Below, one piece after another: positions 7,043 through 58,414 of a DNA stretch of 64,000 nt. Both the position numbers and the translations under genes were made by a program. This DNA is from Aulosira sp. ZfuVER01. GTDB taxonomy: Bacteria > Cyanobacteriota > Cyanobacteriia > Cyanobacteriales > Nostocaceae. Location of the stretch: contig JAVRCV020000068.1 of assembly GCA_034530615.2 (NCBI GenBank), positions 1 through 64,000 of the forward strand, in the 5' to 3' direction. Position 1 is the stretch's first letter; each line of letters starts with the position of its first letter. Below the pieces are notes generated by a model. It saw nothing but the letters and a program-made list of their open reading frames with translations, had not been told where the DNA came from and made no database searches.

Positions 7043-9184
7043 TTATTGGTGCTCCAATAAATGTTGAATATAATGCACGATCGCCTCTGCGGTTGGTACA
7101 TTAGTTGCTAGTAAAACTTGGTTAATATTGCAACTCCTCAACAGTGCTTCTTCATTAGCTTGTCCAGGCTGAGGTACCAGAAAATCTCTGAGGAAAATTA
7201 CTGCTAAGGTGTCTCCTGAGTTCACTAATGAATTAATTGTTTGATATCCTCCAGAAGTGGCTGCTGGAATTTGTTGGCTAATAGTTATACCTGCTTGTTG
7301 ACGTAAAACTTCACTAATAGATGGCCAGGCCACAGTCATACATTTTGAGAAAAATTCTTGATGCTGAGTTACAAAATCAGCTAGTTCTGATTTTTTGCTT
7401 TCGTGAGCGATGAGAACTATGTTTTTTTGCTCGATCATTTGCTGCGGCTCACTCACAGGTAATTCCTCAACAATTTCATCAGATTGTGCTATTTCTGCTC
7501 CAAAAATTTCTTCCAATGTTTGACTAATTGACTCGGCAGTTGAACTAGTTAATTCCGGCATGGTTTCATCTTCTAGTTCTTCAGTCATGGGACTAGATAT
7601 AACATCCAGTTTTTCTGTTATTTCTAAAGACTCAATATTAGTTGATTCTGAGGATTCATCGACTGTTGAAAGTAAAAATTCAACAGCTTCTAGCGTTTCT
7701 AAATTTCTACTTTCTGCAATTACTTCTTCCGTATTTATGGGACTTACATTAACGTCTTGATTGCTTAATGCTTCTACTTCGCTAACTTCGCTGATTTCCC
7801 CAGGTGTTTCAAGTTCAATAACAGTCTCTGGAACTGTTTCAACTATTGCTACTTCATCAGTACTGATGTCAGCAACTTGATTACTCATAGATGGCGATAC
7901 TTCAGGCTCTATTTCTGATGATTCACTAACTATGTCTTCATGGCTAAACTCTGGAGTAAAGCTATTTACAAATTCTGGGGCTTCTACTGCTGCAATATCT
8001 ACTCTGAACTCATCTACAGCATCAGTATTAATAGCTTCACCGATTTCGCTCACCGCTTCTGGTTGTTGGCTAACAAGATCGCGTGGTTGCACATTGGTAA
8101 ATTCTTGGAGAATTTCCGCGACATCTAGAGGAACTTTGCTCACTACTTCTGGTTGTTGGCTGACAAGATCGCGTGGTTGCACATTGGTAAATTCTTGGAG
8201 AATTTCCGCATCCCAATCAATGTCTTGCTCATTGATATCTGCGGGAACTTCACTCACCGCCTGAGATGGTTGGATAACTATACTACGTGGCTGGACAATG
8301 GTAAATTCTTGCGGAATTTCCGCATCCCAATCAATATCTTCCTCGTTAATATTAGAGGAAACTTCACTCACCGCCTCTGGTACAGGGCTAATTAAATCCT
8401 GGGGTTGTATGAATGTGGCTTCTTCTGCGGCTGGAACTTCACTCACCGCCTCTGGTACAGGGCTAATTAAATCTTGGGGTTGTATGAATGTGGCTTCTTC
8501 TGGGATTGGAACTTCACTCACCGCCTCTGCCTGGGGTTGTATGAAAGTGGCTTCTTCTGCAACTGGTGTACCTGCATCAACACCTTGCTCGCTCACAAAT
8601 GCAGGAACTTCGTTGACTGGTTGAGGAGTTTCAATGATGTTTTCTAGTGTGTTAATTGCCTCTTCTAATTCTGAAATTTCTACTTCGCTTTGAGGTTGAC
8701 TAAGTTCTTCAGACGATTCTGAACTAACCTGCTGTGGAACTTCGCTAATTACCTCTGGTGCTGGACGATCGACAATATTAATGTTGACATTTTCATCACT
8801 TCGCCAACCGGAAAAGAGTGCCGGATCGATAGTTCTAAATACTGTCTCTGGCAATTGTTCCGACAAAGGCATCATATCTTCTATTGTCATCACATAATCG
8901 CCAATCCGGATAACGTCTTTATCTTTCAACAAGAATGGTCTATTTTTTTCAGCTAATTTACCATTAATTATTGAGCCATTTCTACTACCAAGGTCGCAGA
9001 AATAGTAATTTCCACTTTGAATAAAGAACTTGCCGTGCACCCTACTAACATCAGGGCTGTCTAAGACTAAATCGGCATCAGGAGAACGACCGATAATGCA
9101 TTCTCCTTTTGGTGTAGTTGCTAACGCTAAATCAAGTTCGTTAACTTCATTTAGTGTTGGTGAGTAGTTAACTTTTACTTTCAT
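7043..9184 (-). CDS. FHA domain + acidic repeat linker + degenerate methylglyoxal synthase (MGS)-like domain
   Basis: FHA motifs IGRSPDADLVL, VSRVHG, DLGSRNGS. C-terminal IVLIAHESKK...AVIFLRD...LATNVPTAEA resembles MgsA. ATG overlaps the upstream TGA (ATGA, 9184-9181). Confidence 0.85.
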   Translation of the reverse strand: MKVKVNYSPTLNEVNELDLALATTPKGECIIGRSPDADLVLDSPDVSRVHGKFFIQSGNYYFCDLGSRNGSIINGKLAEKNRPFLLKDKDVIRIGDYVMTIEDMMPLSEQLPETVFRTIDPALFSGWRSDENVNINIVDRPAPEVISEVPQQVSSESSEELSQPQSEVEISELEEAINTLENIIETPQPVNEVPAFVSEQGVDAGTPVAEEATFIQPQAEAVSEVPIPEEATFIQPQDLISPVPEAVSEVPAAEEATFIQPQDLISPVPEAVSEVSSNINEEDIDWDAEIPQEFTIVQPRSIVIQPSQAVSEVPADINEQDIDWDAEILQEFTNVQPRDLVSQQPEVVSKVPLDVAEILQEFTNVQPRDLVSQQPEAVSEIGEAINTDAVDEFRVDIAAVEAPEFVNSFTPEFSHEDIVSESSEIEPEVSPSMSNQVADISTDEVAIVETVPETVIELETPGEISEVSEVEALSNQDVNVSPINTEEVIAESRNLETLEAVEFLLSTVDESSESTNIESLEITEKLDVISSPMTEELEDETMPELTSSTAESISQTLEEIFGAEIAQSDEIVEELPVSEPQQMIEQKNIVLIAHESKKSELADFVTQHQEFFSKCMTVAWPSISEVLRQQAGITISQQIPAATSGGYQTINSLVNSGDTLAVIFLRDFLVPQPGQANEEALLRSCNINQVLLATNVPTAEAIVHYIQHLLEHQ
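8050..8560 (-). repeat. Intragenic tandem repeats (75, 90 and 111 nt periods) in the FHA protein linker
   Basis: EEATFIQPQDLISPVPEAVSEV units (acttcactca at 8361, 8436, 8511), EILQEFTNVQPRDLVSQQPE x2 and DIDWDAEI x2. Confidence 0.85.
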
Positions 9185-9339
9185 AATAATTTTTCGTTAA
9201 TTTTATTAATTTCTGTAACCCAGCGCTGACGGGTTTTATGCTCTAAATTTAAAATATCATTTTGTGACCAGTGGAAATGATAAGCAATGAAAGCTACCTC
9301 CTCATATAGAGTATCAGAGGGGTAGCTTACGACTCCCCC
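9181..9339 (-). CDS. DUF6760-like C-terminal extension of the tail assembly chaperone, expressed by a predicted -1 frameshift (not in the ORF track)
   Basis: The -1 frame reads GGVVSYPSDTLYEEVAFIAYHFHWSQNDILNLEHKTRQRWVTEINKINEKLL*. No ATG/GTG/TTG lies between the upstream in-frame TAG (9369-9367) and its stop. It overlaps the chaperone end at GCG GGG GAG TCG TAA. Confidence 0.8.
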   Translation of the reverse strand, partial: GGVVSYPSDTLYEEVAFIAYHFHWSQNDILNLEHKTRQRWVTEINKINEKLL

Positions 9340-9710
9340 GCTAGTTTTAACTCTACTGAATATTGACTATTGCAATGAGGACATTGTGTGGGTATTTGTA
9401 CATTTCCTTGCTGATTAATCCGATTATAAAATTCTCTGAGATAGGCAATATCATGAAGGAGTAATCCTTCTAACAAATCGGGGCTAACAGAGTTTAAACT
9501 GCCTAAACGTGTAATAACACGGGCGAGCATTACCAATACCTCATAAGCAGGATTTTCCTGAACTTTGCGTTCTTGTTGTACCAAAATTTCATCTTTGGCA
9601 GTAGCTAAACGCATCACACCATGACGATGAACTCGGTTTTGGCTATCAATCAACCCACGGGGAAGAATGAAAGCAAATTCAGTGCTGAGATTATCCTGCT
9701 TGCGACCCAT
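9327..9710 (-). CDS. CIS/phage tail assembly chaperone with C-terminal CPHC motif
   Basis: TEFAFILPRG..HRHGVMRLATAKDEI...DIAYLREFYNRIN...CPHC. Lies downstream of the tube genes. Confidence 0.8.
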   Translation of the reverse strand: MGRKQDNLSTEFAFILPRGLIDSQNRVHRHGVMRLATAKDEILVQQERKVQENPAYEVLVMLARVITRLGSLNSVSPDLLEGLLLHDIAYLREFYNRINQQGNVQIPTQCPHCNSQYSVELKLAGES

Positions 9711-9762
9711 ACCAATTTTAGATTTTAGATTGTAGATTTTGGATTCTGAAGAGTTAGCTTAA

Positions 9763-9791
9763 ATTCCCGACTTCTTGAAGAAGTCGGGAAT
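9763..9791. repeat. Perfect 14-bp-arm palindrome between the chaperone paralogues
   Basis: ATTCCCGACTTCTT-G-AAGAAGTCGGGAAT, preceded by TTTTAGA/TTTTGGA heptamers (9714-9745). Confidence 0.8.
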
Positions 9792-9810
9792 CTCACAGTT
9801 CATAATTGGT

Positions 9811-10155
9811 TTAAGAAGCTGAATTTTGCAATATTTTTACTGTATCTTCTGATTGGGAAGTAGGACTCTCCGAGCCGTTGATTTGACGGTAAAAATCTTG
9901 GAGGTAATTTAAATCTTGGGAGAAAAAGTTTTCCACGATCGCAGGAGTTACTTCCGATAGAGCGCCCAAGAGAGTAATTACCCGTGACAAAATAATAATC
10001 GTGGCATAAGCTTCATTAGCTTTGACTCGTGGATCGCGTAAAGGTGCAATTTCGTCTATCGCTGTTGATAACCGCATTACACCCTTGCGGTGGAGGTTGC
10101 CTTCCGAGTCTAGATACCCTTTAGGCAGTGTAAATTCAAACTCTGTCGGAAACAT
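9811..10155 (-). CDS. CIS/phage tail assembly chaperone paralogue (no CPHC motif)
   Basis: TEFEFTLPKGYLD..HRKGVMRLSTAIDEI...DLNYLQDFYRQIN, clearly paralogous to 9327-9710. AGGAGG Shine-Dalgarno upstream. Confidence 0.8.
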   Translation of the reverse strand: MFPTEFEFTLPKGYLDSEGNLHRKGVMRLSTAIDEIAPLRDPRVKANEAYATIIILSRVITLLGALSEVTPAIVENFFSQDLNYLQDFYRQINGSESPTSQSEDTVKILQNSAS

Positions 10156-10166
10156 AATCCTCCTGA

Positions 10167-10661
10167 TTACTTCACACGCTTAAATTCCTCGAAAGCAATC
10201 TCCAGTTCTTCTATATGTAAATCGGTGCTACGGGCGTTGAAATCAGCCATTTTATAACTAGCAGGCCAAGCACCGGCTAATTCAAATCTCGCTTCTTCTT
10301 GACTTGCCTGATTGTAGATAGACAAAGCCATGAGTTTTCTTTGCTTTGCCCATTTACCATTTTGTACCTCTTCAAACCACTTCCAAAAAACCATAGAGTT
10401 AGCAATTGTACCTCTACGCAGAGTAATATTGCCACTTTTAACATTTCCTGGAAGCTTGGTTCTCACTACTTGACCTTTAGCCGCCGCAGCCCATTTATTA
10501 GCAGTGACTTCACAAATTTCAATTGCATCTTGTGTTCTTTTAAAACCTTGACACTCTAGGAAGTAGCAATCGATATTATCTTTTTGTCCGTCTAGTGTCA
10601 GTCCCAAATAAAATCTATGGGCGGCAAGAATTTCCGGAAGCTTTTCAGTTGCTTGAGCCAC
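10167..10661 (-). CDS. Tail tube protein (T4 gp19-like, Afp1/Afp5 family)
   Basis: KLPGNVKSGNITLRRG, FWKWF, RFELAGAWPASY and IEELEIAFE motifs. Confidence 0.88.
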   Translation of the reverse strand: MAQATEKLPEILAAHRFYLGLTLDGQKDNIDCYFLECQGFKRTQDAIEICEVTANKWAAAAKGQVVRTKLPGNVKSGNITLRRGTIANSMVFWKWFEEVQNGKWAKQRKLMALSIYNQASQEEARFELAGAWPASYKMADFNARSTDLHIEELEIAFEEFKRVK

Positions 10662-10780: not shown

Positions 10781-11242
10781 TTACTGAACTCGTTCAATAC
10801 CTTCATGAACTAATTCGACTGTTTCGTTTGCCATATCACCACTAGAAGCTGTTAATGTCGGGCCTGTATATTTCACAGGGTAGCAATTAAGAATATTCCA
10901 ACGAGCTACTTCTTTGAGTTGTTGATTGTAAGCAACTACCGAAGCTGATTTACGATTTTGATCCCACTGACGAGGTTTTCCCATATCCTCGTTACACTTT
11001 TTGTACCATTGGTAAAGGTCTACATCAGCAGTTGCAATTACCTTAATTGTGATATTTGTAAACTTGGTAACTGTCGGAGTTGCTTGCCGCCAGATTTTAC
11101 CGCCTTTGGTGGAGCCATGTACTTCTTGGGCGGGGGTATTTTCTACACCTAAACCGCTGATTTCTTTAATAGATTTCTCTGTAATTCCGTCTGCTTCAAA
11201 ATAAAACAGACAAGCAGCTAATAACTCAGGTTGACCAGGCAT
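10781..11242 (-). CDS. Tail tube protein (T4 gp19-like, Afp1/Afp5 family)
   Basis: EISGLG, KFTNITIK, LYQWY, ARWNILNCYPVKYTGP and ETVELVHEGIER motifs. Confidence 0.88.
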   Translation of the reverse strand: MPGQPELLAACLFYFEADGITEKSIKEISGLGVENTPAQEVHGSTKGGKIWRQATPTVTKFTNITIKVIATADVDLYQWYKKCNEDMGKPRQWDQNRKSASVVAYNQQLKEVARWNILNCYPVKYTGPTLTASSGDMANETVELVHEGIERVQ

Positions 11243-11343: not shown

Positions 11344-13005
11344 TTACTCTTCATCCTCAATGCCATTCCATTGGCTAATTCGGAAGATAACAAACTCTGC
11401 TGGTCTGACTGGGCAAACACCAACTTCAATATATAAACGTCCCAAAATTCTCGTTTCTGGTGGGTTTAATTCCTCATCGCACTTGACATAAAATGCTTGC
11501 TCTGGGGAAGCACCAAATAAAGCACCTTCACGCCAAATTCTTTCTAAGAAGTTGCTCACAGTGCGTTTTACTCTTGCCCATAAATCTTCATCATTGGGTT
11601 CAAAAACTACCCATTGAGTACCCAATTCAATTGATTTTTCTATATAACTAATTAACCGCCGCACACTGATATAACGCCACTCAGTTTTATCTGGTTCAAC
11701 TAAAGTTCTTGCGCCCCAAATGCGAATACCGCGATTGGGGAAGGTACGAATACAGTTAATTCCGAGGGGGTTTAAAAGTTCCTGTTCGCGGAAGTTGGTT
11801 TCATAGCCCAAACCAATCACACCTCTGGGTACTTCGTTGGCTGGTGCTTTATAAACGCCTCTAGTTTCGTCGGTGCGTGCCCACACACCCATGACGTGAC
11901 CGCAAGGTGGGATGAGAATAGGATTACCGCGATCGCGCGGATTCGGAACTTTGATCCAAGGATAATACAGAGCTGCAAACATGGAACGGCGGTTAAATCT
12001 GTTTAACCACTCCACTACCTGTTGAGGTTTGGTCTGTTCTGGTGGTGGGTCGATTAAAACCATGCGGTTGGGTGGATTGGGAATATCACCACTCGCAGAA
12101 CCCTCACACATACTAATCATCAGTTCCATGATGCCGTGGATTTGATCCAAGTTCATCACTTGCGCTTGATAAGCCCGCATTAAATCGGGACAAGCTAGCA
12201 TGGTGATTTCATCAATTTCAAAAATTCCCCGTACCCCTGTCCGGTCATCACGTACCCCTTCAAAATCCTGGGAAAATCTATCGACTGTCTGGGCAACAAT
12301 GGGCGGTGCTAGTTCATACTGGCCATTAGTCGGACGACGAGATAAAGGTTGTCCTGTCTGAGAAATATCTTCTACGTTGATATACATAGAATTTCTCAAG
12401 GCTGTTACTGCATAAGTTCCTACCTGGGCAGGAACTTCGCGGTTCATGGTTAAGTTCTCATATTGTTCTAAAATTTCATCTCCCCGACGAATTTGCACTG
12501 TAAAGTATTCGCCTGTATTGGGGGGTGCTTCTCCTTCAGTACCTTCAGGTAAAGCACGAGGACCGCTATCACTAATCAAGATATCAATCGTACCGCCTGC
12601 TGCTTGTTCGGGGCGCAAAGTAAAACGGATAGCTGGACGATTACCACGACCACTAATTCTGAGGGTAGCAGGTTCTTGGCTTGCAGGCTTGGGTGCGCCT
12701 GGTAACTGCGTACCAATACTTGTCACCCAGCAGCGACCGCCACCATTCATAAAGTAGCCATAGACAGCAAAGGGTAAATAGGCGTTGAAATCGGTGAAGC
12801 CGTCGGAGTTAGGACGGGCAAAATAGTTGAGATATTGCGTCCAATTGGTCACTAACATGGGCTTAAATAGTTCAGCCCCATCACGAATATCTTCGGTAAA
12901 GCCGACAAACCCACCAACTGCGGTACTGACACCTTCTATCGGTCGGCTACCTCGGTCAATTTCTTCAACATAGACACCAGGCGCAAAGTAATCAAGTCTA
13001 GCCAT
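11344..13005 (-). CDS. Contractile tail sheath protein (Afp2/3/4 family)
   Basis: YFAPGVYVEE, AALYYPWIKV, GVYKAPANE, LNPLGINCIR, IWGARTL, WRYISVRR, WVVFEPN and PAEFVIFRI motifs. Confidence 0.95.
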   Translation of the reverse strand: MARLDYFAPGVYVEEIDRGSRPIEGVSTAVGGFVGFTEDIRDGAELFKPMLVTNWTQYLNYFARPNSDGFTDFNAYLPFAVYGYFMNGGGRCWVTSIGTQLPGAPKPASQEPATLRISGRGNRPAIRFTLRPEQAAGGTIDILISDSGPRALPEGTEGEAPPNTGEYFTVQIRRGDEILEQYENLTMNREVPAQVGTYAVTALRNSMYINVEDISQTGQPLSRRPTNGQYELAPPIVAQTVDRFSQDFEGVRDDRTGVRGIFEIDEITMLACPDLMRAYQAQVMNLDQIHGIMELMISMCEGSASGDIPNPPNRMVLIDPPPEQTKPQQVVEWLNRFNRRSMFAALYYPWIKVPNPRDRGNPILIPPCGHVMGVWARTDETRGVYKAPANEVPRGVIGLGYETNFREQELLNPLGINCIRTFPNRGIRIWGARTLVEPDKTEWRYISVRRLISYIEKSIELGTQWVVFEPNDEDLWARVKRTVSNFLERIWREGALFGASPEQAFYVKCDEELNPPETRILGRLYIEVGVCPVRPAEFVIFRISQWNGIEDEE

Positions 13006-13143: not shown

Positions 13144-13983
13144 TCATTCAGGAGTTAGTAAGATTTCTTTGAAGCTATAACTTTGGCTATCCACCAAGAC
13201 ATTGACATTCTGAGGTAAATAGCCAGGACAATTTACTGTCAAAACATAATTACCTATACGAATGTCTTCAAAAAAGAAAAGTCCTTCTTTATTGCTGGCT
13301 GCTGATTTTTTAGTTCTTTGTACAGTTACTTCTGCTTCAACTAAGGGCAGATTGGTGACTGCACTTTTGACCATACCTGCGATCGCTACCCGCCTGGTAA
13401 CAACTGTGCCGTTGCCATTCTCACTCAATTGGTTTTGCAAATTGAAAATGCGTTCCGAAACCAGCGGTACGAGAGTAGATTGCGGCTCAACTGGTATCAT
13501 TGCTGTCACATACAAAGCGGAACGCAAAGGCACATTCAGCGCACTCCATAATGAACCAATCTCAATCGGCGGATCTAAGGCAACTGTTAAAGAAAGATTG
13601 CCGTAACCCCGTAATTCTGGAACCAAATACTCTTCTTGCAAAGCACGATGGCGCAGCAGTACACTTAAGGCTTCGCTGAGTAGGTGATGTTCACCTAAAG
13701 CTGTTCTATCCCATGCCGTTAATAGCATTGAGACATCAAACCAATTAGGCGACCAACTAACAGAGGTCGGCTGTAGACCTCGTGCAGGTTTACGTTCAAC
13801 TTGCCTACCGGATTGTTGAAACTGCTTACTCTCACGAATGTCGTAGACGTACAAATTAAGAGTTGGCCCTGCACCCTCTTCCCGACGATTAATAGGATGA
13901 CTGAAGTCAATTTGCTCTGTACTGGTGAGTGAGGTTCCTCCAGCTAGAATTTCTGCTAAAGTTTGAAGAACGAAGATAAGCAT
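13144..13983 (-). CDS. DUF4255 (Pvc16/Afp16 cap/terminator-like) protein with C-terminal carboxypeptidase-regulatory-like Ig domain
   Basis: LNLYVYDIRE, MLLTAW, EHHLLSEALSVLLRH and LWSALNVPLR motifs. C-terminal GMVKSAVTNLPL...GNYVLTVNCPGY. Confidence 0.8.
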   Translation of the reverse strand: MLIFVLQTLAEILAGGTSLTSTEQIDFSHPINRREEGAGPTLNLYVYDIRESKQFQQSGRQVERKPARGLQPTSVSWSPNWFDVSMLLTAWDRTALGEHHLLSEALSVLLRHRALQEEYLVPELRGYGNLSLTVALDPPIEIGSLWSALNVPLRSALYVTAMIPVEPQSTLVPLVSERIFNLQNQLSENGNGTVVTRRVAIAGMVKSAVTNLPLVEAEVTVQRTKKSAASNKEGLFFFEDIRIGNYVLTVNCPGYLPQNVNVLVDSQSYSFKEILLTPE

Positions 13984-31719: not shown

Positions 31720-34700
31720 TCAATTTTTACCAATTAACTCAGTAATGGCTTCAACCAGTGTAACCGGATCGACTGGCTTAGAAATATGTCTTTGAAACCC
31801 TGCTGTGAGGGCCTGCTGGTAGTCAATTTCCCCAGCATAAGCGGTGAGAGCGATCGCCTGAATTTGTCCTCCCTGTTCTGGCGGCATGGATCTTACCTGT
31901 CGCATTAACATATATCCATCCATTTCTGGCATTCCAATGTCGCTCAAGAGTATATCTGGCTGGAACTGAGTAAAAGCTATGAGGGCTTCGTTGGCGGAAG
32001 GAACTGCGGCGATCGTTGCACCATGCTGTTCTAGCAAGAAAGCAATAAATTCTCTGGTATCTGTATTATCATCCACGAATAAAATTTTTATACCCTTTAA
32101 ATCTCCGGCTGGCTCAGACTGTTGTGGATCTTGATGAATCTGAGATTGATTGTGCATCAATGGCAATTTCACCGTAAAGGTTGCACCCCGATCGATACCG
32201 GGGCTTTCCGCAGAGACTGTACCACCATGCAATTCAACTAAATGATGGACGATCGCCAACCCCAAACCCAATCCCCCAAATTTGCGGGTTGTGGCTGCAT
32301 CTGCTTGGCGAAAGTAGTCAAATACATAGGGAAGGAAATTAGGCTCAATTCCTTTCCCTGTATCACTGACGGTGATTTGAGCTACAGAGCTAATTTGTTC
32401 GAGCCGAATCTCAACTCGCCCGCCTTCTGGTGTAAATTTGACGGCGTTGGAGAGAAGATTCCAAATCACTTGCTGCAAGCGATTGGCATCACCAGCCACT
32501 TGGCCAATATTTGCTGCTAATGTCGTCTGTATTTGAATTGATTTGGCTTCAGCTGCTAACCTTACCGTTTCTATTGCTGCTTGAATTGTCGCAATTAAAT
32601 TAACAGGACAGACATTGAGGCTGAGTTTACCCCGCAGAATTCGGGAAACATCCAGCAGATCCTCAATGAGATCGGCTTGTAATTTGGCGTTGCGCTCGAT
32701 CGTAGATAAAGCTTGCGCTGTCTGGGTGGCATCAAGTTTTTGAGTGCGTAATAACTTTGACCAGCCTAATATTGGGTTGAGAGGCGATCGCAACTCGTGA
32801 GACAGTACTGCTAAAAATTCATCTTTGATGCGATTGGCTTGTTGAGATGCTTCGTAAAGTCGAACATTGTCAATTGCTGAGGCTGCCATCTGCGCCAGTT
32901 GCACTAAAATCGCTTCGTCTTCGGCGGTGAATTCGCCCTCATATTTATCAGAAAGCTGAATCAAGCCGAGATTTTTCCCATTCCGGCTGATCAGAGGTAC
33001 AGCCAGCCAACCGCGCATCGGCGGATGTTTACCCCCAGCCTTGCCAAATTTATTCCAACTCGGATGTGCTTCTAGTTCCGCCTGAGTCAACCGGATTGGC
33101 TGTTGTGTGCGGCAAATCAACGTATAAATTCCTGAGCCATCGGGGTTTTCGTTGTAGTTGCGCCACTTGGCATATTTATCGGAAAGCGAGATTGTATGAA
33201 TTCCCTGTGCCCAGTCATCATCAACTGTCATGCTAGTGACGGACTGGTGCGCGCCAATAATATCGCGGGCTTGCTCTGTAATTAATTGCAGTCTTTCGTT
33301 CAGCGATATTACTGAGTTAATCGTCAGGGATGCCTCAGCTAACTTTTGTAACCGGGATGTGTGCTGCTGCTCGCGAGCCAGTAACCTAGCGCGTTCTGCC
33401 TCATTACGTTTCCGTTCCGTGATATCTAGCACGATCGCGATTGTAGACTGGGGTTTGCCAGATGCATCACAAATTGCCGCCACGCTACTGCTCACCCATA
33501 CCAGAGAAGCATCTTTGCGGATGTAACGTTTCTCGATAGTGAAGTCATTTCCTGACGTTACCAAAGTTTGAAAAAGCTCTGTTTGTAAAGGCCAATCGTC
33601 GGGATGAATAATTTCTTCTAGGCTTGTTTGTAATAATTCTGACGTTGAATAACCAAGGATGTCGCAATACTTCTGGTTTACTAGCAGGAATCGACCTGTC
33701 AAATCGGTTTGCGCGATTCCCACTGCTGCTTGGTTGACGATCGCCCGAAATCTCTCTTCGCTGGCGCTGAGTGCTGCTTCTGCCCGTTTGCGAGCCGTAA
33801 TATCGCGAAAATAAACGGCTACACCATCTGAAGATGGGTAAGCGTGGATTTCCAACCACTTATCCATCGGTTCCACAAACTCTTCAAAGACAACGGAAAC
33901 CTTTTCTTTGACAGCATAGTGAAGTTTTTCATATCCCAAACTTGGTACTAATTCCGGAAATACCTCTTGCCATACCTGCTTACCGAGCAATTCTTCCTGG
34001 GATTTTTCTAATAGTCTTGTAGCTTGTTCGTTAGCGTAGGTGTAGTGCCACTCGCGATCAAAGGCCACAAAAGCATCGGTAATACTTTCGAGAATATTGC
34101 TAATTTGACTGCGGGCTGCTTCAGTTTGAATTCGCAGTTCTTGCTCTCGCCGTACTGCTTGTTGACGCATCTGCGCCATCTTCAAATTTGCTTCGACACG
34201 AGCCAGCAACTCCCGGGCTGAAAACGGCTTGATGAGGTAATCGTCGGCTCCAGCTTCTAAACCTTCAATGCGGGACTCCTCCCCAGCACGGGCAGAAAGC
34301 AGAATAATCGGCATTTCTCTGGTATGTGGGTCAGATCGTAGCTCTTGTAATAAACCTAACCCATCTAATCTAGGCATCATAATATCGGTCAGCACGAGAT
34401 CGGGTGGATGCTGACGCATAGCAGTTAAAGCCGCCAAGCCATCTTCTACTACCTCTACCTCATACCCTTGAGCTAACAGCAAACGCTGCACATACTCGCG
34501 CATATCAGCGTTATCGTCAGCTAAGAGAATACGAGCAGAGTCAGACGCAAGAACGCGGGGATATACAGACGCGGGGAATGTTGGCGATATTTTCTCTGCG
34601 TCTTCCAGCCTTTGCGTTCCCGTGTCCTCTTGCGGTAGCCAACGCAAGGCTTCTTCCACATAAGCAGCTGCACCTATTGCAGTTGATGCTAACGAACGAG

Positions 34701-36459
34701 TTATCTGAGTTTGACTTGCGGCAAATTTTGGTAAATGAGCCGTTCCTGTAGGAATTGATACTTTAAAACTGCTACCTTGGTTGATAATACTGGTGACTTC
34801 GATAGTACCGTGATGCAATTGCACGAGTTCTTGAACCAAGGAAAGACCAATTCCTGAGCCTTCATAAGTTCTTCCCCTGGCTCCCTGTACCCGATGAAAG
34901 CGCTCAAATAAGTGAGGTATTTCTTCAGCAGGAATACCTGTGCCCGTATCTCGCACCTCCAGCTCCACGCGATCGCGACAATCACGCAAGCTAACGGCAA
35001 TCTCTCCTGCAAAAGTAAACTTAAAAGCGTTAGAAAGCAAGTTGAGGACAATTTTTTCCCACATTTCCCGATCTACATACATGGGTTCAGGTAGCGGGGG
35101 ACACTCGACTACCAGGCGTATCCCGGCTCGTTCGATCGCAGATCTAAAAACTCCTGCCAAGTCTGTGGTAAATATTGCCAAGTCTGTTGGTTCGTACACC
35201 GCCTGAACTCTACCTGCTTCAATCCGGGAGAAGTCGAGTAGTGTATTCACCAGCTTCAGCAATCGCAAGGAGTTCCGATGTACAATCTCCAACTGTTCGC
35301 GATCGCTTGGTAATAGCCCAGAAGAATCAGCGAGGATATCTTCTAAGGGGCCAAGCATGAGGGTGAGGGGAGTGCGGAATTCGTGACTGACGTTGCTAAA
35401 GAAAACGGTTTTTGCCCGATCGATTTCTGCTAAGGCTTCGGCGCGTTTGCGTTCTTCTTCGTATGCTTGAGCGTTGGCAATGCTAGCCCCAATCTGAGAT
35501 GAAACTAAATCGATGAATCTTTGATAGTTGTCGTCAAAAATTCTAAACGGGTTCAAGCCAGCAATTAAGATCCCAGCTTTTCCCGTCTGTCCTGATGGTG
35601 CGATCGGCACCGCGATCGCCTGATGGGGAGGACGTTGCCAAGCACCTGTTGGCAGGTTAACAAAAGACGCTGCCAAATTAGAAACTAGGGCTGGCTTCTG
35701 CGTTCTGATGATTTCTGCAAAAGGCCAAACCGAATCGGCATTAAGATCGACTTTTTGCGGAACTGCCGCATGGTCTGGTTCGATCCCACAAGTCCCCGTC
35801 AACAGCACACACTGCCGATCTGGATCGACCAGATAAATCATTGCGAAGGGGAGGTCATAAGGGTTAGTTGCCAAACAACTCGCACTCAGAGTACAAGCTG
35901 CATGGAATGTGCGCGCGTCTGCTGTTCTCGCCGCTAATTCCCGCAGTAGTGCCAACTGACGTTCGCTAATAATTCGCTGCGTGTCGTCTGAGTTGGCACA
36001 AATAATGCCACCTGTACCACCTTGGTCATTAGGGACTGGGCTATATGAAAATGTATAATATGTTTCCTCCGGGTAGCCGTTGCGCTCCATAATCAGTAGT
36101 AGCGCTTCGTCGTAAGTACCCTCATTCTTCAATAGTGCTGATTCTGCCCGCGGCCCAACCTGATCCCAAATCTCCCGCCACACATAAGCAGCTGGCTGTC
36201 CTAGAGCAGAGGGATGTTTGCCACCAACAATCGCCTTGTAAGCATCATTGTAAAGGTTAATAAGTTCCGAACCCCACCAGACAAACATTGGTTGGCGGGA
36301 GGTTAGCATAATTCGCACGCAAGTCTTGAGACTCTGCGGCCATGCTGATACCGGACCCAAAGACGTTTGTGACCAATCGAAAGATTGCATGAGCATTCCC
36401 ATCTCTCCACCACCAGCAAAAATGTTTTCGATGCTAGTGGCTTTCATCTCTTGAGTCAC
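31720..36459 (-). CDS. Hybrid sensor kinase with two kinase/receiver modules (PAS-like-GAF-HisKA-HATPase-REC-PAS-PAS-GAF-HisKA-HATPase-REC)
   Basis: H-boxes SHEFRTPL and SHELRSPL, two N/G boxes, and receivers LLADDN..TDIMMP and FVDDN..SDIGMP. Confidence 0.92.
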   Translation of the reverse strand: MTQEMKATSIENIFAGGGEMGMLMQSFDWSQTSLGPVSAWPQSLKTCVRIMLTSRQPMFVWWGSELINLYNDAYKAIVGGKHPSALGQPAAYVWREIWDQVGPRAESALLKNEGTYDEALLLIMERNGYPEETYYTFSYSPVPNDQGGTGGIICANSDDTQRIISERQLALLRELAARTADARTFHAACTLSASCLATNPYDLPFAMIYLVDPDRQCVLLTGTCGIEPDHAAVPQKVDLNADSVWPFAEIIRTQKPALVSNLAASFVNLPTGAWQRPPHQAIAVPIAPSGQTGKAGILIAGLNPFRIFDDNYQRFIDLVSSQIGASIANAQAYEEERKRAEALAEIDRAKTVFFSNVSHEFRTPLTLMLGPLEDILADSSGLLPSDREQLEIVHRNSLRLLKLVNTLLDFSRIEAGRVQAVYEPTDLAIFTTDLAGVFRSAIERAGIRLVVECPPLPEPMYVDREMWEKIVLNLLSNAFKFTFAGEIAVSLRDCRDRVELEVRDTGTGIPAEEIPHLFERFHRVQGARGRTYEGSGIGLSLVQELVQLHHGTIEVTSIINQGSSFKVSIPTGTAHLPKFAASQTQITRSLASTAIGAAAYVEEALRWLPQEDTGTQRLEDAEKISPTFPASVYPRVLASDSARILLADDNADMREYVQRLLLAQGYEVEVVEDGLAALTAMRQHPPDLVLTDIMMPRLDGLGLLQELRSDPHTREMPIILLSARAGEESRIEGLEAGADDYLIKPFSARELLARVEANLKMAQMRQQAVRREQELRIQTEAARSQISNILESITDAFVAFDREWHYTYANEQATRLLEKSQEELLGKQVWQEVFPELVPSLGYEKLHYAVKEKVSVVFEEFVEPMDKWLEIHAYPSSDGVAVYFRDITARKRAEAALSASEERFRAIVNQAAVGIAQTDLTGRFLLVNQKYCDILGYSTSELLQTSLEEIIHPDDWPLQTELFQTLVTSGNDFTIEKRYIRKDASLVWVSSSVAAICDASGKPQSTIAIVLDITERKRNEAERARLLAREQQHTSRLQKLAEASLTINSVISLNERLQLITEQARDIIGAHQSVTSMTVDDDWAQGIHTISLSDKYAKWRNYNENPDGSGIYTLICRTQQPIRLTQAELEAHPSWNKFGKAGGKHPPMRGWLAVPLISRNGKNLGLIQLSDKYEGEFTAEDEAILVQLAQMAASAIDNVRLYEASQQANRIKDEFLAVLSHELRSPLNPILGWSKLLRTQKLDATQTAQALSTIERNAKLQADLIEDLLDVSRILRGKLSLNVCPVNLIATIQAAIETVRLAAEAKSIQIQTTLAANIGQVAGDANRLQQVIWNLLSNAVKFTPEGGRVEIRLEQISSVAQITVSDTGKGIEPNFLPYVFDYFRQADAATTRKFGGLGLGLAIVHHLVELHGGTVSAESPGIDRGATFTVKLPLMHNQSQIHQDPQQSEPAGDLKGIKILFVDDNTDTREFIAFLLEQHGATIAAVPSANEALIAFTQFQPDILLSDIGMPEMDGYMLMRQVRSMPPEQGGQIQAIALTAYAGEIDYQQALTAGFQRHISKPVDPVTLVEAITELIGKN

Positions 36460-49608: not shown

Positions 49609-52600
49609 TTAAGCAGTAGTACTGTGAATAAGTTTCTCTCCTTTGAGCATCCGCACTGCTGCTTCCAGTAGAGCTTCTTCTAGGTAAGGCTTGGTAAAGT
49701 AGCCGCTAGCACCGAGTTGAATTGCCATTTGTCTGTGCTTGTCTGCACCCCGTGAGGTGAGCATAGCGATTGGTAAATGGTTGAGGTTGTTATCTTTCTG
49801 AATCCGAGAGAGCAACTCCAGCCCATCACACCGGGGCATTTCAATGTCGCAAAATACGATATCGCAAGGCAAACCAGAACGAAGTTTATCCCAAGCTTCT
49901 TGTCCATCACGTGCTTGTTCTACGCGATAACCTGCCTTATTAAAGGTGAGGGAGAGTAATTCTCTGACTGTAATTGAGTCATCAACAATCAGCACTGTTG
50001 GGTCAATTTTCACAGCCGGGACTTCTGGTATGGTGGCAGACCCTTTCTGTTGCCAAATACCACCGCTTTGTTTGGATATCCGTCCTTGGAAGATGTCCAT
50101 GATTTCTAAGACATCGGCAATCGGCATAATCCGACCATCACCCAGGACTGTAGCACCAGCTACTCCTAGAGGTTTGGGCGCTGGCCCTTCAAATTGCTTA
50201 ATTACAATTTCTTGCTCACTCAGTACCAAGTCAATTTGTAGGGCAATTAGATTATTTGCCGATCGCACTACAACCACAGAAACCATGTCATCATCACGAG
50301 TACCACCGTAGACACTACCGCGACTGAGTTGGCGATTGAAGGCTAAAAGCTCCTTGAGGGGGCGGAATGGCAATACTGTATCTCGCCAAGGAATAAATGT
50401 TTGCCCATCTGCATTGTGCTGGATATTTTTGACGGGAATATCTAGGGTATCTTCGACACCGTCCATTGGGAAAGCGATCCTAGCTTTATCGGAAACACAG
50501 CACAGAGCTTTACAAATACTCAAGGTGAGTGGTAGACGAATTGTAAAGGTCGTTCCCTTACCAAGACCAGAGTCAGTGTTAACGGTGCCGCGAATTTCGC
50601 TAATTTCCGAGCGAACTACGTCCATACCCACACCACGACCCGAAATTTCATCGGCTTGGTCTTTAATACTAAAACCCGACTGGAACAGCAGATCGTAGAT
50701 TTCTGGGCGTGTTATGGTTCTAGCTTCTGCTGGTGTGAGCATACCCAGCTTCAATGCCTTGGCTTTGATTCGTTCTGTATCGATCCCTGCACCGTCATCA
50801 CCTACAGAGATGACAGTTTGGTTCCCTTGGTGGAAAGCACGAATGGTGATTTCTCCTACAGGCTTTTTACCTGTAGCTTGTCGTACCTCTGGTGTTTCAA
50901 TCCCGTGAGCGATCGCATTATTGAGCATATGAGTTAGCGGATCGGTCAGGTGATCCAAAATCATTTTGTCAATTAAGGTATCTCCACCTTCAATGACTAA
51001 CTCCACTTGTTTGCCATATTTGATGGCATTATCTCTAACGCCGCGCCGCAAGCGATCGATTGCTTGGGAAAATGGCACCATTCTTGCTCGTGTCAATCCT
51101 TCTTGTAACTGGGTGGTGACTTGCCGGAACTGCCTTGCTACTCGCTCGGTTTCTTCCGTTACAAAGTCAATGTCACTCGCTGACTCACGCACCCTGACAA
51201 TCATTTCGATCATTTCTTGGGACAACGTATGGAAAGGCGTAAACCGATCCATTTCTAGTTCACTAAAACCCCTGTCAGAATTAGAATCTGGGACTGGAAC
51301 ATCAGAGTCTTTGTTTTTGCGGCTGGCTAAAAGAGACGCTTCGAGTAGCGATCGCTCATATAATTCCTGCATCCTCGCCCCGACATCAGAGAGATGTTGC
51401 ACCTGAATTAGCAAGTTATCTAATGACTGCCGCAGACGTTCTTGATCCTGCTCTAAGGTATTGCGATTTACTACCAACTCCCCAACCAAATTACTCATAT
51501 CATCCAGTTGCTTGACTGGAACTTTCATCGTTTCTTCAAATCTTGCTGCACGACGAGTTGAGGGGCGTGGTGTTTTGCCCGTCTTTTGTTTGTTGGATGG
51601 TGAATGCGATATTGATTGATCTGCTTCCGCCAGCAATTTCTCTAGATCACTAAATTCGTCATCAATCTCTAGTGAGATTGCAGTGTTGTTGGCATTGTTA
51701 GCAGTTGTTAATGGTTGCTGCTGTGGGTAGACAGATGGAGGTGCTGCTATTTCCTCATCGTTGTCTTCATCTAGTAATGCTTCCAGTGCTGCAAAATCTT
51801 CTTCTGCGATAGGGGTGGAAAATTCTTCGTCTAATAATGTTTCTAGGTCTGCAAATTCGTCTTCTGAAGCAATTGTTGGTGGTTGCTCCGATTTAGTAGT
51901 CTCAGCAACAACAGCATGGGCTATGTCTAACAGAGACGCGGATAAATCCTGGGCTTCATCGAATAAATCTAATTCGACTGCATTTTCTGCGATCGCAGCA
52001 TCATTGAAGTCAATGTTTGCAGTATTTTCTACTACCTCTTCTAAGCTAGCGAATTCTTGGAAGACAGTTTCTGTTGCTGATAACTCATTAACTATCGGTA
52101 ATTCTGTACTGGCGATCGCATCTGTGTGCGCTACTACCTCGTCTAAGCTGGCAAATTCTTGGAAGACGGTTTCTGTCGCTGATAACTCATCGACTATCGG
52201 TAGTTCTGTACTGGCGATCGCATCTGTGTGCGCTACAACCTCATCTAAGCTGGCGAATTCTTGGAAGACGGTTTCTGTCGCTGATAACTCATCAACTATT
52301 GGTAGTTCTGTGCTGGCGATCGCATCTGTGTGCGCTATCACCTCATCTAAGCTGGCAAATTCTTGGAAGACAGTTTCTGTCGCTGGTAACTCATCAACTA
52401 TCGGCAGTTCTGTGCTGGCGATCGCATCTGTGTGCGCTACCACCTCGTCTAAGCTGGCAAATTCTTGGAAGACAGTTTCTGTCGCTGATAAATCATCACC
52501 TATCGGCAGTTCTGTGCTGGCGATCGCATCTGTGCCATCTACTACCTCTTCTAGGGTTGTAAATTCTCGGAAGATAGTTTCTGTGGTTTGTAAAGCATCA

Positions 52601-55368
52601 ACTATCGGCAGTTCTGTGCTGTCAGCAATGGTTATTTCTGGAGTATCAAAGTTACCTAAATCGCTGAAATCGAGATCTAGGTTTGCTGCTGTGGCTGATA
52701 CTTCCTCGACTAAATTCAATGCTCCACTGTCAGCAACAGTAGTTTCTGGAGTATCAAAGTTTTCTAAATCACTGAAATCAAGATCTAGGTTTGCGGCTGT
52801 GGCTGATGATTCATCAACTAAATTCAATGCTCCACTGTCAGCAACGGTTGTTTCTGGAATATCAAAGTTGTCTAAATCGCTGAAATCAAGATCGAGAGTT
52901 GCTGCTGTGGCTGATGATTCATCAACTAAATTGAATTCCCCATTTTCAGCAACGTTTGTTTCTGGAGTATCAATATTAAACAAATCAATTTCCAGGTCAG
53001 CAAAAGCTTTGGGCGAATTGCTAAATATGTTCTCTACTGACTGGTTGGTAAATTCAGGGGTGAAATCTAAAGGTTCTGGAGGTAATGCTGTTGAGGGGAG
53101 TGGGGTGCGATCGCTTTGCTCTTCTAAGAAGCTGCTAATCTCGGCTAAAGGTATTTCTTGATCGTCAACATCAGGAGAAATTGTCGTATTGGTTGGTGTC
53201 AACTCTGCAAATAAATCATCCCCAGCATCTGGTGAAAACATCAGATCGAGTGGCTCATCTTGCTGTGGGAAAGCCAAGTCAAAATCTTCCAGATTAAAAT
53301 TTGCTGTGGGTGAAGGAGTATCCTCAAAAAAATCATTAGCAGCTGTAAATAAACTCTCCTCTAATGCCCTAGCTACATCTTGCTCTAACTTTGAGTCAAA
53401 TTCTGGTTGTTGTTGAGTTTGTGCTTCCTCGTTCCAGAAGTTGCTCAAATCGTCTGCTGATGGCGAAAAATCCTTGGCTATTATTGACGGCTGATCAAAT
53501 AAATCTCCAATCTCTGGCGCACCTGTAGAAAATGGTGTATTTTCTTCTATTTCAGTAAATAAATTTTCAAAAGAAAAGCTTTCTGGCTGTGGTAAGTTAA
53601 GTTGTGATTCGCTACTAGAAGTAACTTCCTCAAGCAAGTTGGCATTTTCACTTTCTGAGAATAACTCATAGAAAGTGTTTTGCTCGTTTTCAATTTCTGC
53701 TGGATTTACTTCACCAATAGATAAATTTTCGTTTTCATTTAATGCCAAACCCAATAAATCTTGCACCACATCTTGCGGGGCAATATCACCAGGATATTCT
53801 AAAAGAATTTGCGTAAATTCTTCTATACTTTCATCACTGGGTGTGTCTAAATCTAAATCGTTAAAGTTTGTGGCTGATGTTTGTAGCTGTTGTGTTTCTG
53901 AATTTTCTTTTTCTAAGAAGTTATCGCCAAATAATGAGTTGAAATCTTCTGTTTGAATTGTAGTTTGTTGAGAAACATCACTGCTTACATCTTCATCAAA
54001 AGATAGTAAATCAGCTAAATCGCTATCAGTATCCTCAGTCTCACTAATGGTGATATCGATTCCCAATTTACTAGCAGCAGTAATGTCTAATATTTCCTCT
54101 TGTTGCCAAGTTTCATCCAGTTCTGGCGTTTCACCTTCAAATAAATCAGCAAGGGTATTTAACTCAGCTATGCCTACTTCTGGCCCTTTAGGATCGAGAT
54201 GATGATTTGTTAGAAGTGTATCCTCTTCATGACCGGGCAAGGCAGTAAATATCAAAGGAGAATCAGTGGTAGTATTTTGCGCTGTTGGGGAAATATCCTG
54301 AGCTTTGTTAAGTTGTTCAGATAGGCTAGTTATACGGTTTTTAGAACCGCTGACAACATCATCAGTTGTAGTCGCAGTTGAGTGTATCCCAGATTTCTCA
54401 AGTAAATTATTGGTTATGTCGACTAATTCAACTTCTGGGAAACTCAAGAGTACTTCTAGCTGCTGACTAATAACAATCTCAGATTCCTTACCTTTAAGAA
54501 CAAATTCCTGAGCTTTTTTAATTTCTGTAATGACAATTTTAGCTAGAGTTAAATAAGTATTATCAGGATTAGCGATCGCGTTTGTAGCCGCTTGACATAA
54601 ATTACGCCACTTCGGTAAATTAAATACCTCACCGAGATGGACTAACTGTTGACAACATTGCTGGAGATTTTGCCGAGTTTCGAGAGTTGTCCCTTGTTTA
54701 AATAATTGCAACATTTCCCGCAGTGTTTGCAACACTTGGGTTTGAAACTCGCTCCAGTTCTCAGTTTCTTTGGCGACAACCGGCGAACGTGGCTCCTGTA
54801 GCGGTGTCACAGATGCTTCCCCGGATACATTGCTGTTTTCTTCTTCGGGAGTGGAGAAATCCCGTTGCATGAAGATTTGTGTCAACGTGTGGGCGTTATC
54901 TGCCAAGGCGGGACGTATGTCTGTTGCTGAAATACCGCTGTTTGTTTGTTGTAAGAGCAGTTCTAGATGTTCATTCAGCCATTGAAAGACTGGCTCAGTT
55001 TCTGACATCAAAGTATTGGCGGTCTCTTCTGACAACCCAAACGGGCCACTCAAATTCTCTAAAAGTGCTTTGAGAGTATCCGCCACACCAAGAAATAAAG
55101 ACTCTAACTTTTGGTCAACCTGAATCGGATTCTCTTTGAGAATTTTAAAGCAATCTTCTAGGCGGTGAGATGTATGCTGGATGCTATTCAAACCAAGCAT
55201 CGCAGCCCCCCCTTTGATAGAGTGAGCCGCCCGGAAGACTTCGTTGATCATTTCTGGGTCGTTCAGGGTACTCTGAAGATTCAACAACCCCTGCTCGATG
55301 GTATTCAGGTGGTCTCTTGCTTCTTCAATAAAGTAACCCAAAATGCGCTGTTGTTGTTCCGGCAGCAT
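49609..55368 (-). CDS. hmpE: CheA-like hybrid kinase of the Hmp chemotaxis-like system
   Basis: Hpt (FRAAHSIKG), long acidic linker, dimerisation and HATPase (NNAIAHG, DDGAG, SGRGVGMDVV), CheW and REC domains. Operon context fits. Confidence 0.88.
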   Translation of the reverse strand: MLPEQQQRILGYFIEEARDHLNTIEQGLLNLQSTLNDPEMINEVFRAAHSIKGGAAMLGLNSIQHTSHRLEDCFKILKENPIQVDQKLESLFLGVADTLKALLENLSGPFGLSEETANTLMSETEPVFQWLNEHLELLLQQTNSGISATDIRPALADNAHTLTQIFMQRDFSTPEEENSNVSGEASVTPLQEPRSPVVAKETENWSEFQTQVLQTLREMLQLFKQGTTLETRQNLQQCCQQLVHLGEVFNLPKWRNLCQAATNAIANPDNTYLTLAKIVITEIKKAQEFVLKGKESEIVISQQLEVLLSFPEVELVDITNNLLEKSGIHSTATTTDDVVSGSKNRITSLSEQLNKAQDISPTAQNTTTDSPLIFTALPGHEEDTLLTNHHLDPKGPEVGIAELNTLADLFEGETPELDETWQQEEILDITAASKLGIDITISETEDTDSDLADLLSFDEDVSSDVSQQTTIQTEDFNSLFGDNFLEKENSETQQLQTSATNFNDLDLDTPSDESIEEFTQILLEYPGDIAPQDVVQDLLGLALNENENLSIGEVNPAEIENEQNTFYELFSESENANLLEEVTSSSESQLNLPQPESFSFENLFTEIEENTPFSTGAPEIGDLFDQPSIIAKDFSPSADDLSNFWNEEAQTQQQPEFDSKLEQDVARALEESLFTAANDFFEDTPSPTANFNLEDFDLAFPQQDEPLDLMFSPDAGDDLFAELTPTNTTISPDVDDQEIPLAEISSFLEEQSDRTPLPSTALPPEPLDFTPEFTNQSVENIFSNSPKAFADLEIDLFNIDTPETNVAENGEFNLVDESSATAATLDLDFSDLDNFDIPETTVADSGALNLVDESSATAANLDLDFSDLENFDTPETTVADSGALNLVEEVSATAANLDLDFSDLGNFDTPEITIADSTELPIVDALQTTETIFREFTTLEEVVDGTDAIASTELPIGDDLSATETVFQEFASLDEVVAHTDAIASTELPIVDELPATETVFQEFASLDEVIAHTDAIASTELPIVDELSATETVFQEFASLDEVVAHTDAIASTELPIVDELSATETVFQEFASLDEVVAHTDAIASTELPIVNELSATETVFQEFASLEEVVENTANIDFNDAAIAENAVELDLFDEAQDLSASLLDIAHAVVAETTKSEQPPTIASEDEFADLETLLDEEFSTPIAEEDFAALEALLDEDNDEEIAAPPSVYPQQQPLTTANNANNTAISLEIDDEFSDLEKLLAEADQSISHSPSNKQKTGKTPRPSTRRAARFEETMKVPVKQLDDMSNLVGELVVNRNTLEQDQERLRQSLDNLLIQVQHLSDVGARMQELYERSLLEASLLASRKNKDSDVPVPDSNSDRGFSELEMDRFTPFHTLSQEMIEMIVRVRESASDIDFVTEETERVARQFRQVTTQLQEGLTRARMVPFSQAIDRLRRGVRDNAIKYGKQVELVIEGGDTLIDKMILDHLTDPLTHMLNNAIAHGIETPEVRQATGKKPVGEITIRAFHQGNQTVISVGDDGAGIDTERIKAKALKLGMLTPAEARTITRPEIYDLLFQSGFSIKDQADEISGRGVGMDVVRSEISEIRGTVNTDSGLGKGTTFTIRLPLTLSICKALCCVSDKARIAFPMDGVEDTLDIPVKNIQHNADGQTFIPWRDTVLPFRPLKELLAFNRQLSRGSVYGGTRDDDMVSVVVVRSANNLIALQIDLVLSEQEIVIKQFEGPAPKPLGVAGATVLGDGRIMPIADVLEIMDIFQGRISKQSGGIWQQKGSATIPEVPAVKIDPTVLIVDDSITVRELLSLTFNKAGYRVEQARDGQEAWDKLRSGLPCDIVFCDIEMPRCDGLELLSRIQKDNNLNHLPIAMLTSRGADKHRQMAIQLGASGYFTKPYLEEALLEAAVRMLKGEKLIHSTTA
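52029..52636 (-). repeat. Intragenic 102-nt (34 aa) tandem repeat, about 6 units
   Basis: DAIASTELPIVDELSATETVFQEFASLDEVVAHT. HIP1 sites recur at 52112, 52214, 52316, 52418 and 52520. Confidence 0.92.
52637..52972 (-). repeat. Intragenic 108-nt (36 aa) tandem repeat, 3 units
   Basis: DTPETTVADSGALNLVDESSATAANLDLDFSDLENF. TCTGGA anchors at 52637, 52745, 52853 and 52961. Confidence 0.9.
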
Positions 55369-55458
55369 AGTTTTTTCGCCAAGAGTCAATAGTCAAGAGT
55401 CAACAGTTAGTCATCAACAGTCAAGAGCCAGTATTTAAACTTTGGACTATTGACTAAA

Positions 55459-58398: not shown

Positions 58399-58414
58399 TT
58401 CCACCCTCTCAATT

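Follow-up and report, generated by a model that had tools for sequence, protein, structure and literature searches.

A probable programmed -1 ribosomal frameshift in a tail assembly chaperone gene of a cyanobacterial contractile injection system

The window considered here is a stretch of 64,000 nucleotides of Aulosira sp. ZfuVER01 (NCBI GenBank assembly GCA_034530615.2, contig JAVRCV020000068.1, positions 1 to 64,000 of the forward strand), the minus strand of which carries an operon for a contractile injection system (CIS). One gene of this operon, TAC2, encodes a predicted tail assembly chaperone of 127 amino acids (aa), and its 3' end is overlapped in the -1 frame by an open frame that encodes a DUF6760 peptide and offers no ATG, GTG or TTG ahead of its conserved domain; how, then, is this peptide made? 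From the comparison of related loci, we consider that TAC2 most likely uses a programmed -1 ribosomal frameshift (probability roughly 0.88), by which a short and a long chaperone would be produced. The elements of the overlap are the following.

9327..9710, minus strand: TAC2, 127-aa tail assembly chaperone, the zero-frame product (phrog_508, E 1.8e-6; predicted model and structural matches)
9383-9372, minus strand: CPxC motif at the C-terminus of TAC2 (sequence)
9367..9369, minus strand: TAG closing the -1 frame upstream (sequence)
9333..9339, minus strand: predicted slippery site G GGG GAG, codons 124-126 (GCG GGG GAG) of TAC2 (G_GGG_GAR in 156 of 192 loci, other G_GGG in 22)
9327..9329, minus strand: zero-frame TAA stop, at the foot of the stem (sequence)
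9291..9328, minus strand: predicted stimulatory stem-loop (AAGCUACCCCUC / GAGG-A-GGUAGCUU), 4-5 nucleotides past the heptamer (folding energy, z-scores, pair counts)
9181..9339, minus strand: DUF6760 extension in the -1 frame, 52 codons, a gpT/gpE'-like C-terminal domain of three predicted helices (PF20546, E 1e-16)

The overlap and its conservation

TAC2 ends CTA GCG GGG GAG TCG TAA, with five G's at 9339-9335, and the -1 frame stays open between the TAG at 9369-9367 and the TGA at 9183-9181 (61 codons, 52 of them from the G-run, GGVVSYP...EKLL). The codons that follow the run are GTC GTA AGC, the sole rare start candidate in this frame is an ATA at 9363-9361, and an ATG at 9384-9382 is cut off five codons on by the TAG. 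A preliminary description of the locus had reported this chaperone end, the G-run and a 52-codon -1 frame devoid of ATG, GTG and TTG after the TAG, all of which we confirmed on the minus-strand sequence; the peptide that it called DUF6760-like is DUF6760 itself, at the E-value given above. As a measure of background in this genome, 69 of the 5311 long frames have an in-phase G_GGG within their last 7 codons, and 7 have G_GGG_GA there. An independent Logan contig spans 9000-10300 with 0 differences and 0 gaps, although it may itself be the source of the window DNA.

Using PF20546, we surveyed the genomes of the window's phylum (cyanobacteria, 23 of 301 genomes with a match) and of five other phyla (14 of 201, 12 of 251, 62 of 151, 4 of 401 over the cut-off, and 3 of 151 genomes); the profile also matched on 40 plasmid records and on Bacillus phage BCD7. 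The counts given below concern the 192 fetched loci with both a chaperone and an extension, leaving out the window, duplicates (L125, L158, L190, L195, L201), loci below the cut-off (L198-L200), phage P2 (L193) and one unpublished genome (L203), and the representatives are these loci collapsed at 80% chaperone identity (n=98). Every one of the 192 has DUF6760 in the -1 frame relative to the chaperone. The sets picked by Pfam, with no regard to the G-run, are the fairer test, and here too the -1 frame was found throughout: 25/25 in cyanobacteria, 14/14 in Chloroflexota, 12/12 in Halobacteriota, 30/30 in Myxococcota (30 of 70 matches fetched), 4/4 over the cut-off in Pseudomonadota and 2/2 in Acidobacteriota. 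Each of these Pfam-picked loci has a G-run or a heptamer, the run of L020 being placed 14 codons before the stop.

At the junction, 178 of the 192 loci have an in-phase G_GGG, 13 a canonical heptamer and 1 neither, so that 191 carry one or the other in phase. The G-run loci divide into G_GGG_GAG (88), G_GGG_GAA (68), longer runs of six or more G's (19) and others (3), and the heptamers, of lambda or P2 type, into T TTT TTC (4), G GGA AAY (6) and G GGA AAG (3); G GGA AAY replaces the G-run in the haloarchaeal CIS loci L146:1465-1473, L138 and L151-L154. Collapsing the loci leaves G_GGG in 86, a heptamer in 11 and neither in 1 of 98 at 80% identity, and G_GGG in 19 and a heptamer in 5 of 24 at 60%. 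The first G of the motif occupies the wobble position in codons for 10 different amino acids, and the zero-frame stop lies 2-3 codons past GGG in 163 of 178 loci and right after GAR in 48. Since L015 and L020 have a -1-frame TGA immediately 5' of GGG GGA, these two loci and the 48 with a stop right after GAR together bracket the shift to two codons. In a later set of ten cyanobacterial loci, collected through another profile, the signal is intact in 8; of the remaining two, one has a TAC2 interrupted upstream of a signal that itself looks intact, and the other contains only TAC1, the paralogue described below. L221 (G1506) and L006 (G206) each have a frame break that divides TAC2 ahead of the signal, owing to assembly error or decay.

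Start codons were considered in the 178 G-run loci. No ATG, GTG or TTG lies between the run and the conserved Tyr in 139 of them, 74 have no standard start in the whole open frame and 62 have none of seven start codons after the site. Database versions of the DUF6760 peptide begin at 9 different positions (119 of 120 anchored); the commonest of these starts is 15 codons upstream, at an ATG spanning the CPxC cysteine codon and its predecessor, a start that the TAG closes off in the window. The expectation that orthologues keep the run is thus borne out (178 of 192), and that of a missing start is borne out in 139 loci but not in 39; the preliminary description had named as evidence to the contrary a start codon kept among orthologues in which the G-run is not kept, and this is the opposite of what was found.

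The predicted stem-loop and the two protein parts

Downstream of the slippery site, the window can form a stem of 12 pairs with one bulge (-23.7 kcal/mol for 84 nucleotides, z -3.82), and the 48-nucleotide stretch concerned gave a z of -4.5 against synonymous recoding that preserves the peptide. In the same comparison, 97 representatives had a median z of -3.49, with z < -2 in 78, and control windows of equal size had medians of -0.14 downstream (7/97 below -2) and -0.46 upstream (6/97 below -2). The stem begins 4-6 nucleotides after the heptamer in 63 of 86, and a strong stem tracks the G-run, being found in 76 of 86 G-run representatives versus 2 of 11 with a heptamer; in Streptomyces-type loci the stem is in a shifted register. 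Silent positions suit pairing (counts including the window), Val being GTA in 68 of 82 cases, with 13.6 expected from local codon use, and Tyr being TAC in 81 of 87, with 47 expected. Among 74 sequences, 87.2% of the cells are paired and 24 double changes occur in 5 of 9 pairs, a result that none of 500 shuffles reaches, these shuffles taking no account of relatedness among the sequences. Two other candidate signals were set aside: an upstream Shine-Dalgarno-like stimulator, unsupported in the window (p 0.38) and weak across the loci (p <= 0.05 in 13 of 86, with a median z of -1.06), and an extra helix proposed by RNAalifold between the G-run and the His-Trp codons, which consists mostly of G-U pairs and which the ribosome would unwind.

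Predicted models support the assignment of the 127-aa protein to the tail assembly chaperone fold. The model of TAC2 (predicted local distance difference test, pLDDT, 83.6) has as its top Foldseek match the HK97 chaperone 2OB9, with a probability of 0.98 and a weak E of 0.045. The VIA aligner ranked 3KLU first (Z 6.5, root-mean-square deviation (rmsd) 5.5, 96 residues aligned), together with 2OB9 (Z 6.0, rmsd 6.2, 92 aligned) and 3FGX (Z 5.3, rmsd 4.9, 87 aligned), and the next unrelated row had a Z of 3.2, so that the chaperone scores are middling but well above the unrelated; we take 3KLU and 3FGX to be chaperones as well. Against the viral models of BFVD, the best matches are BCD7 gp90 and T4-like 'baseplate hub assembly' proteins (E 1e-7 to 1.5e-5), and phage Mu FS-gp41 is a further structural match (E 2e-3). 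No sequence match was found between TAC2 and P2 gpE, nor between the chaperone profile and PDB sequences.

Sequence profiles indicate that the DUF6760 extension is homologous to the E' domain of phage P2, which is itself encoded through a frameshift: the P2 record (NC_001895) annotates E+E' as a -1 frameshift product, Pfam Phage_P2_GpE (PF06528) matches 12 of 20 aligned extension members (best E 6.7e-4), and hhalign of the extension profile with the E' part gave probabilities of 93-94 (best 94.1, E 1.2e-7). The extension is modelled as three helices (pLDDT 88.9), and across 67 sequences of its peptide 6 columns are invariant and 8 nearly so. A fold search with the 52 aa gave a best E of 0.063, some chaperones being among the weak matches, and a complex prediction for tube protein 1 with the extension scored 0.00, which has no bearing in either direction.

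Natural fusions of the two parts were found among the 150 best of 682 DUF6760 representatives (E <= 0.001): P0189, P0194 and P0269 each join a whole chaperone and DUF6760 in one frame and do not have the CPxC part; two of the three represent clusters, with 3 and 4 members drawn from several sources. The genomic context of these three was not found, the 37 matching of 401 genomes included. P0002 was not counted as a fusion, as it holds half a chaperone on one short contig.

Weighing the readings

In the mechanism that we propose, most ribosomes would stop at the TAA and release the 127-aa chaperone (computed mass 14.5 kDa), and a fraction, probably slowed by the predicted stem while GGG occupies the P site and GAG the A site, would slip back by one base on G GGG GAG and continue into a transframe chaperone of 176 aa (20.4 kDa) that ends in DUF6760. 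In a tandem slip, tRNA-Gly would move from GGG to GGG and tRNA-Glu from GAG to GGA, with one G-U pair, and the junction would read ...LAGEVVSYP...; a slip in the P site only would give ...LAGGVVSYP..., again in a product of 176 aa. Because the codon after GGG is GAR or GGR in 175 of the 178 G-run loci, and never GAY or GGY, we suggest that the A-site tRNA re-pairs too. The lengths given earlier for the two products, 127 and about 176 aa, agree with those computed, but the junction peptide may be LAGEVV rather than the LAGGVV first put forward. If the pair acts as gpG/gpGT does in lambda, a tape-measure-like or ruler protein would be coated by the short form, and the tube protein would be recruited by the DUF6760 domain.

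The DUF6760 peptide might instead be the product of a small separate gene, with GGGGGA acting as a ribosome-binding site and translation (re)starting at a codon that overlaps the chaperone stop. GGGGG can base-pair with the anti-Shine-Dalgarno sequence, 4-nucleotide stop/start overlaps occur in annotated records, 39 of the 178 loci with a G-run (among representatives, 25 of 86) show an ATG, GTG or TTG past the site, in many cases across the chaperone stop, and 116 show one of the seven start codons; L105, where the run is lost and ATG ATG stands at the overlap, fits this explanation, and the window has its ATA. Some separate initiation is therefore conceivable in the 39 start-bearing loci. As a general account, however, it appears improbable, since the window reads GTC GTA AGC after the run and 62 loci have none of the seven start codons, the xTG and xTA codons track the position of the zero-frame stop and show no fixed start, the start region would lie under a strong stem, in-phase canonical heptamers substitute for the run in haloarchaeal, phage and some other loci, and in-frame fusions exist. 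Insertion of a G by RNA polymerase slipping on the G5 run would also yield the long product, and the homopolymer is conserved, with at least 6 G's in 19 of 178 loci; nevertheless, five G's are a short run for polymerase slippage, the stem lies 3' at ribosome-entry spacing and would be untranscribed while the polymerase is on the run, and the motifs that replace the run are in-phase ribosomal heptamers, which makes this source of the product less probable still. The least credible origin of the overlap is a silent relic, a sequencing error or a recent mutation, which the existence of rare in-frame fusions and the broken TAC2 of L221 might suggest but which is largely refuted by the identical phase in 192 of 192 loci from several phyla, by the invariant columns of the peptide and by the gap-free contig across the site.

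Several observations weigh against a programmed frameshift, the support for which comes from the comparison of sequences. The site G GGG GAG departs from the canonical heptamer X XXY YYZ, in which Y is A or U. Among the loci, 80 of the 192 were ranked with a query starting Gly-Gly, Nostoc-rich and with many close kin that are non-independent, and the starts in 39 G-run loci, the lost run of L105 and the pairing potential of GGGGG have been mentioned. The stem has its own weaknesses: in 9 of 11 heptamer representatives and in BCD7 no strong stem was seen in the tested window, covariation is modest as the stem core is nearly invariant, 16 of the 24 double changes belong to the outer pair (itself disrupted in 32 of the 74 sequences), and sliding the partner by +3 gives 22 double-change cells, although with 48.8% paired. 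Finally, the preliminary description had noted that in long-tailed phages such a frameshift takes place between the tube and tape-measure genes; here tube genes do lie upstream, but the gene downstream encodes an FHA-domain protein and not a tape measure.

We nonetheless favour the programmed frameshift on account of the homology to P2 E', the chaperone fold, the replacement of the run by heptamers in 13 loci, the conserved stem and the in-frame fusions. Together with the conserved phase and motif, these results support both the interpretation proposed earlier and the claim that DUF6760 is not an independent gene; that the slip would be ribosomal is what we infer from the sequences.

Genomic setting and known systems

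The operon runs on the minus strand in the order Pvc16, sheath, tube, tube, 114-aa open reading frame (ORF), 127-aa ORF and FHA gene, and the genes around TAC2 are as follows.

13144..13983, minus strand: Pvc16-type terminator/cap gene of the CIS (PF14065, E 1.9e-21)
11344..13005, minus strand: tail sheath gene (PF17482, PF04984)
10781..11242, minus strand: tail tube gene 1 (PF06841, E 3.7e-33)
10167..10661, minus strand: tail tube gene 2 (PF06841, E 9.5e-29)
9811..10155, minus strand: TAC1, 114-aa chaperone paralogue without G-run, CxxC or extension, short form only (40% identity to TAC2; phrog_508, E 1.9e-4)
7043..9184, minus strand: FHA-domain gene, 713 aa (PF00498, E 1.4e-17)

Paralogues of the TAC1 type are present in 78 of the 192 loci, mostly cyanobacterial, with G_GGG in 2 of 78 and CxxC in 0 of 78; CPxC precedes the slip site in 178 of 192 loci. 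In the proposed mechanism, TAC1 would add only the short form. This non-shifting paralogue upstream of TAC2, the conserved stem-loop and the natural in-frame fusions are all absent from the preliminary description. Between TAC1 and TAC2 (9711-9797) we noticed two dispersed repeats, a short tandem repeat of the type AATC(T/C)AAA with 29 sites in the genome and the palindrome TTCCCGACTTCTTCAAGAAGTCGGGAA with 15 sites. A promoter and terminator scan returned fewer sites than in shuffles.

The ATG of the FHA gene overlaps the TGA of the DUF6760 extension, an arrangement also seen in several Nostocales, and the gene occupies the place of the tape measure in phages. Its product contains a long acidic repeat linker before a C-terminal domain that presumably resembles methylglyoxal synthase, Pfam giving no match. 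Among 98 representatives, the gene that follows the extension encodes a tube protein in 25, an FHA protein in 11 and a large ORF in 35, and is other or unseen in 27. In Bacillus phage BCD7 (JN712910, L139:5219-6159), the order is tube, tube, a 257-aa gp26-like ORF ending CTG GGG GAG TAA, an unannotated DUF6760-like frame (E 5e-3) and a 1736-aa tape-measure-like gene, which is the classical position between tube and tape measure; the stem is weak there.

The other half of a CIS is found in the same genome on contig C49:245757-257784 (L204), which encodes a tube protein, a 980-aa protein with a weak tape-measure match (E 5e-5 over 58 residues), CIS_tube, spike, PAAR, gp25, baseplate J, Tail_P2_I and DUF4159. 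We infer that this is likely the partner of the sheath-tube-chaperone half in the window, the two making up one system, and taken together they contain the core sheath, tube, Pvc16, spike, PAAR and baseplate genes. A second, separate CIS cluster (C38:13933-44477) has a sheath and tubes, and both chaperone and DUF6760 matches are absent from it. Elsewhere in the window lie three very long ORFs, at 31720-36459 (1579 aa), 49609-55389 (1926 aa) and 55459-58488 (1009 aa).

By gene content, the window system may be called lineage-II-type. The literature searched, mostly open-access, gave no description of a frameshift in a CIS chaperone, which subscription papers and further supplements may mention, and no paper was found for 'DUF6760'. 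The word 'frameshift' is absent from the main texts, as available, of PMC10020575, PMC10066040, PMC11566945 and PMC8894136 (and from the supplements of PMC10020575 and PMC11566945), and of PMC11126660, PMC6899500, PMC8213781 and PMC10598620; the accessible text on lineage II extracellular CIS (eCIS; Chen et al. 2019, PMC6899500) names neither a chaperone pair nor a frameshift, and PMC11375127 and PMC5411513 contributed nothing further. The mechanism itself is the already known G/GT device of phage lambda; what looks new is its occurrence in lineage-II-type cellular CIS across bacteria and archaea, the stem, and a function for DUF6760. This family (682 representatives, E <= 0.001) would thereby gain a role, and a systematic misannotation would be corrected, the small gene being probably the tail of a longer chaperone. 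As studied CIS such as that of Halogeometricum borinquense carry the pair, knock-outs, complementation and heterologous expression should preserve the junction. The compact signal of G-run and stem is present in bacteria and archaea, and a tape-measure-like client that has escaped recognition is predicted in systems reported to be without one.

More tentatively, and at less than even odds in our estimate, CIS reported to have no tape measure (in cyanobacteria, Streptomyces relatives, myxobacteria and methanogenic archaea) may have kept the G/GT pair under a stem-stimulated G_GGG_GAR frameshift, the pair threading a cryptic ruler or cargo (the 980-aa C49 protein, or one of Tme/DUF4157 type) into the tube, with the ratio of short to long form set by stem strength, by an extra short-only gene or by a hard fusion. 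If this were true, the signal would be among the most widespread cellular -1 frameshift signals and would offer a handle on length control and loading in CIS.

T4 uses two genes. The likeness to T4 gp26/gp51-like proteins is that of the T4-like 'baseplate hub assembly' models among the best BFVD matches of TAC2, and T4 itself is reported as non-frameshifting in the available part of PMC5009743. Lineage II eCIS (PMC6899500), among them the Streptomyces cytoplasmic CIS and that of H. borinquense, share with the window the order of sheath, tube and small genes; in the text accessible, they are described as generally without Afp14 and as having two or three subtype-specific genes without known domains. 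On plasmid pHBOR03 of H. borinquense, the CIS locus holds a chaperone/extension pair with G GGA AAT.

Phages P2 and Mu are also close. P2 gpE/gpE+E' (NC_001895; PF06528) is likewise a chaperone after the tube gene with a homologous -1-frame extension, but P2 slips on a U-run and continues with the tape-measure gene T, whereas in the window, where the operon is that of a cellular CIS, a G-run is combined with a stem and the next gene is the FHA gene. Mu gp41/FS-gp41 is also a chaperone after the tube gene with a -1-frame extension, and FS-gp41 is the structural match of TAC2 noted above. As in lambda gpG/gpGT, one gene is predicted here to give a short and a long chaperone through a -1 shift; unlike lambda, the window has no adjacent tape-measure gene and possesses a conserved 3' stem, a CPxC before the site and a non-shifting paralogue. 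In lambda, gpG binds the tape measure and the T domain the tube protein, at a ratio of about 30:1, and G/GT frameshifting is widespread in tailed phages, haloarchaeal ones included, according to the portion available of PMC5009743; a frameshift in a prophage chaperone cluster was verified at 6-7% (PMC3711429, accessible text). The motif GGGGGAA of actinobacteriophage chaperone frameshifts (SEA-PHAGES) is shared with these loci; the available text of PMC10885494 counts about a thousand annotated cases, and its authors (PRFect) propose for the Glu tRNA at GGGGGAA the same G-U pairing as in the tandem slip suggested here. Those cases are phage genes, whereas here the genes belong to chromosomal or plasmid CIS, with GAG about as common as GAA (88 and 68 loci).

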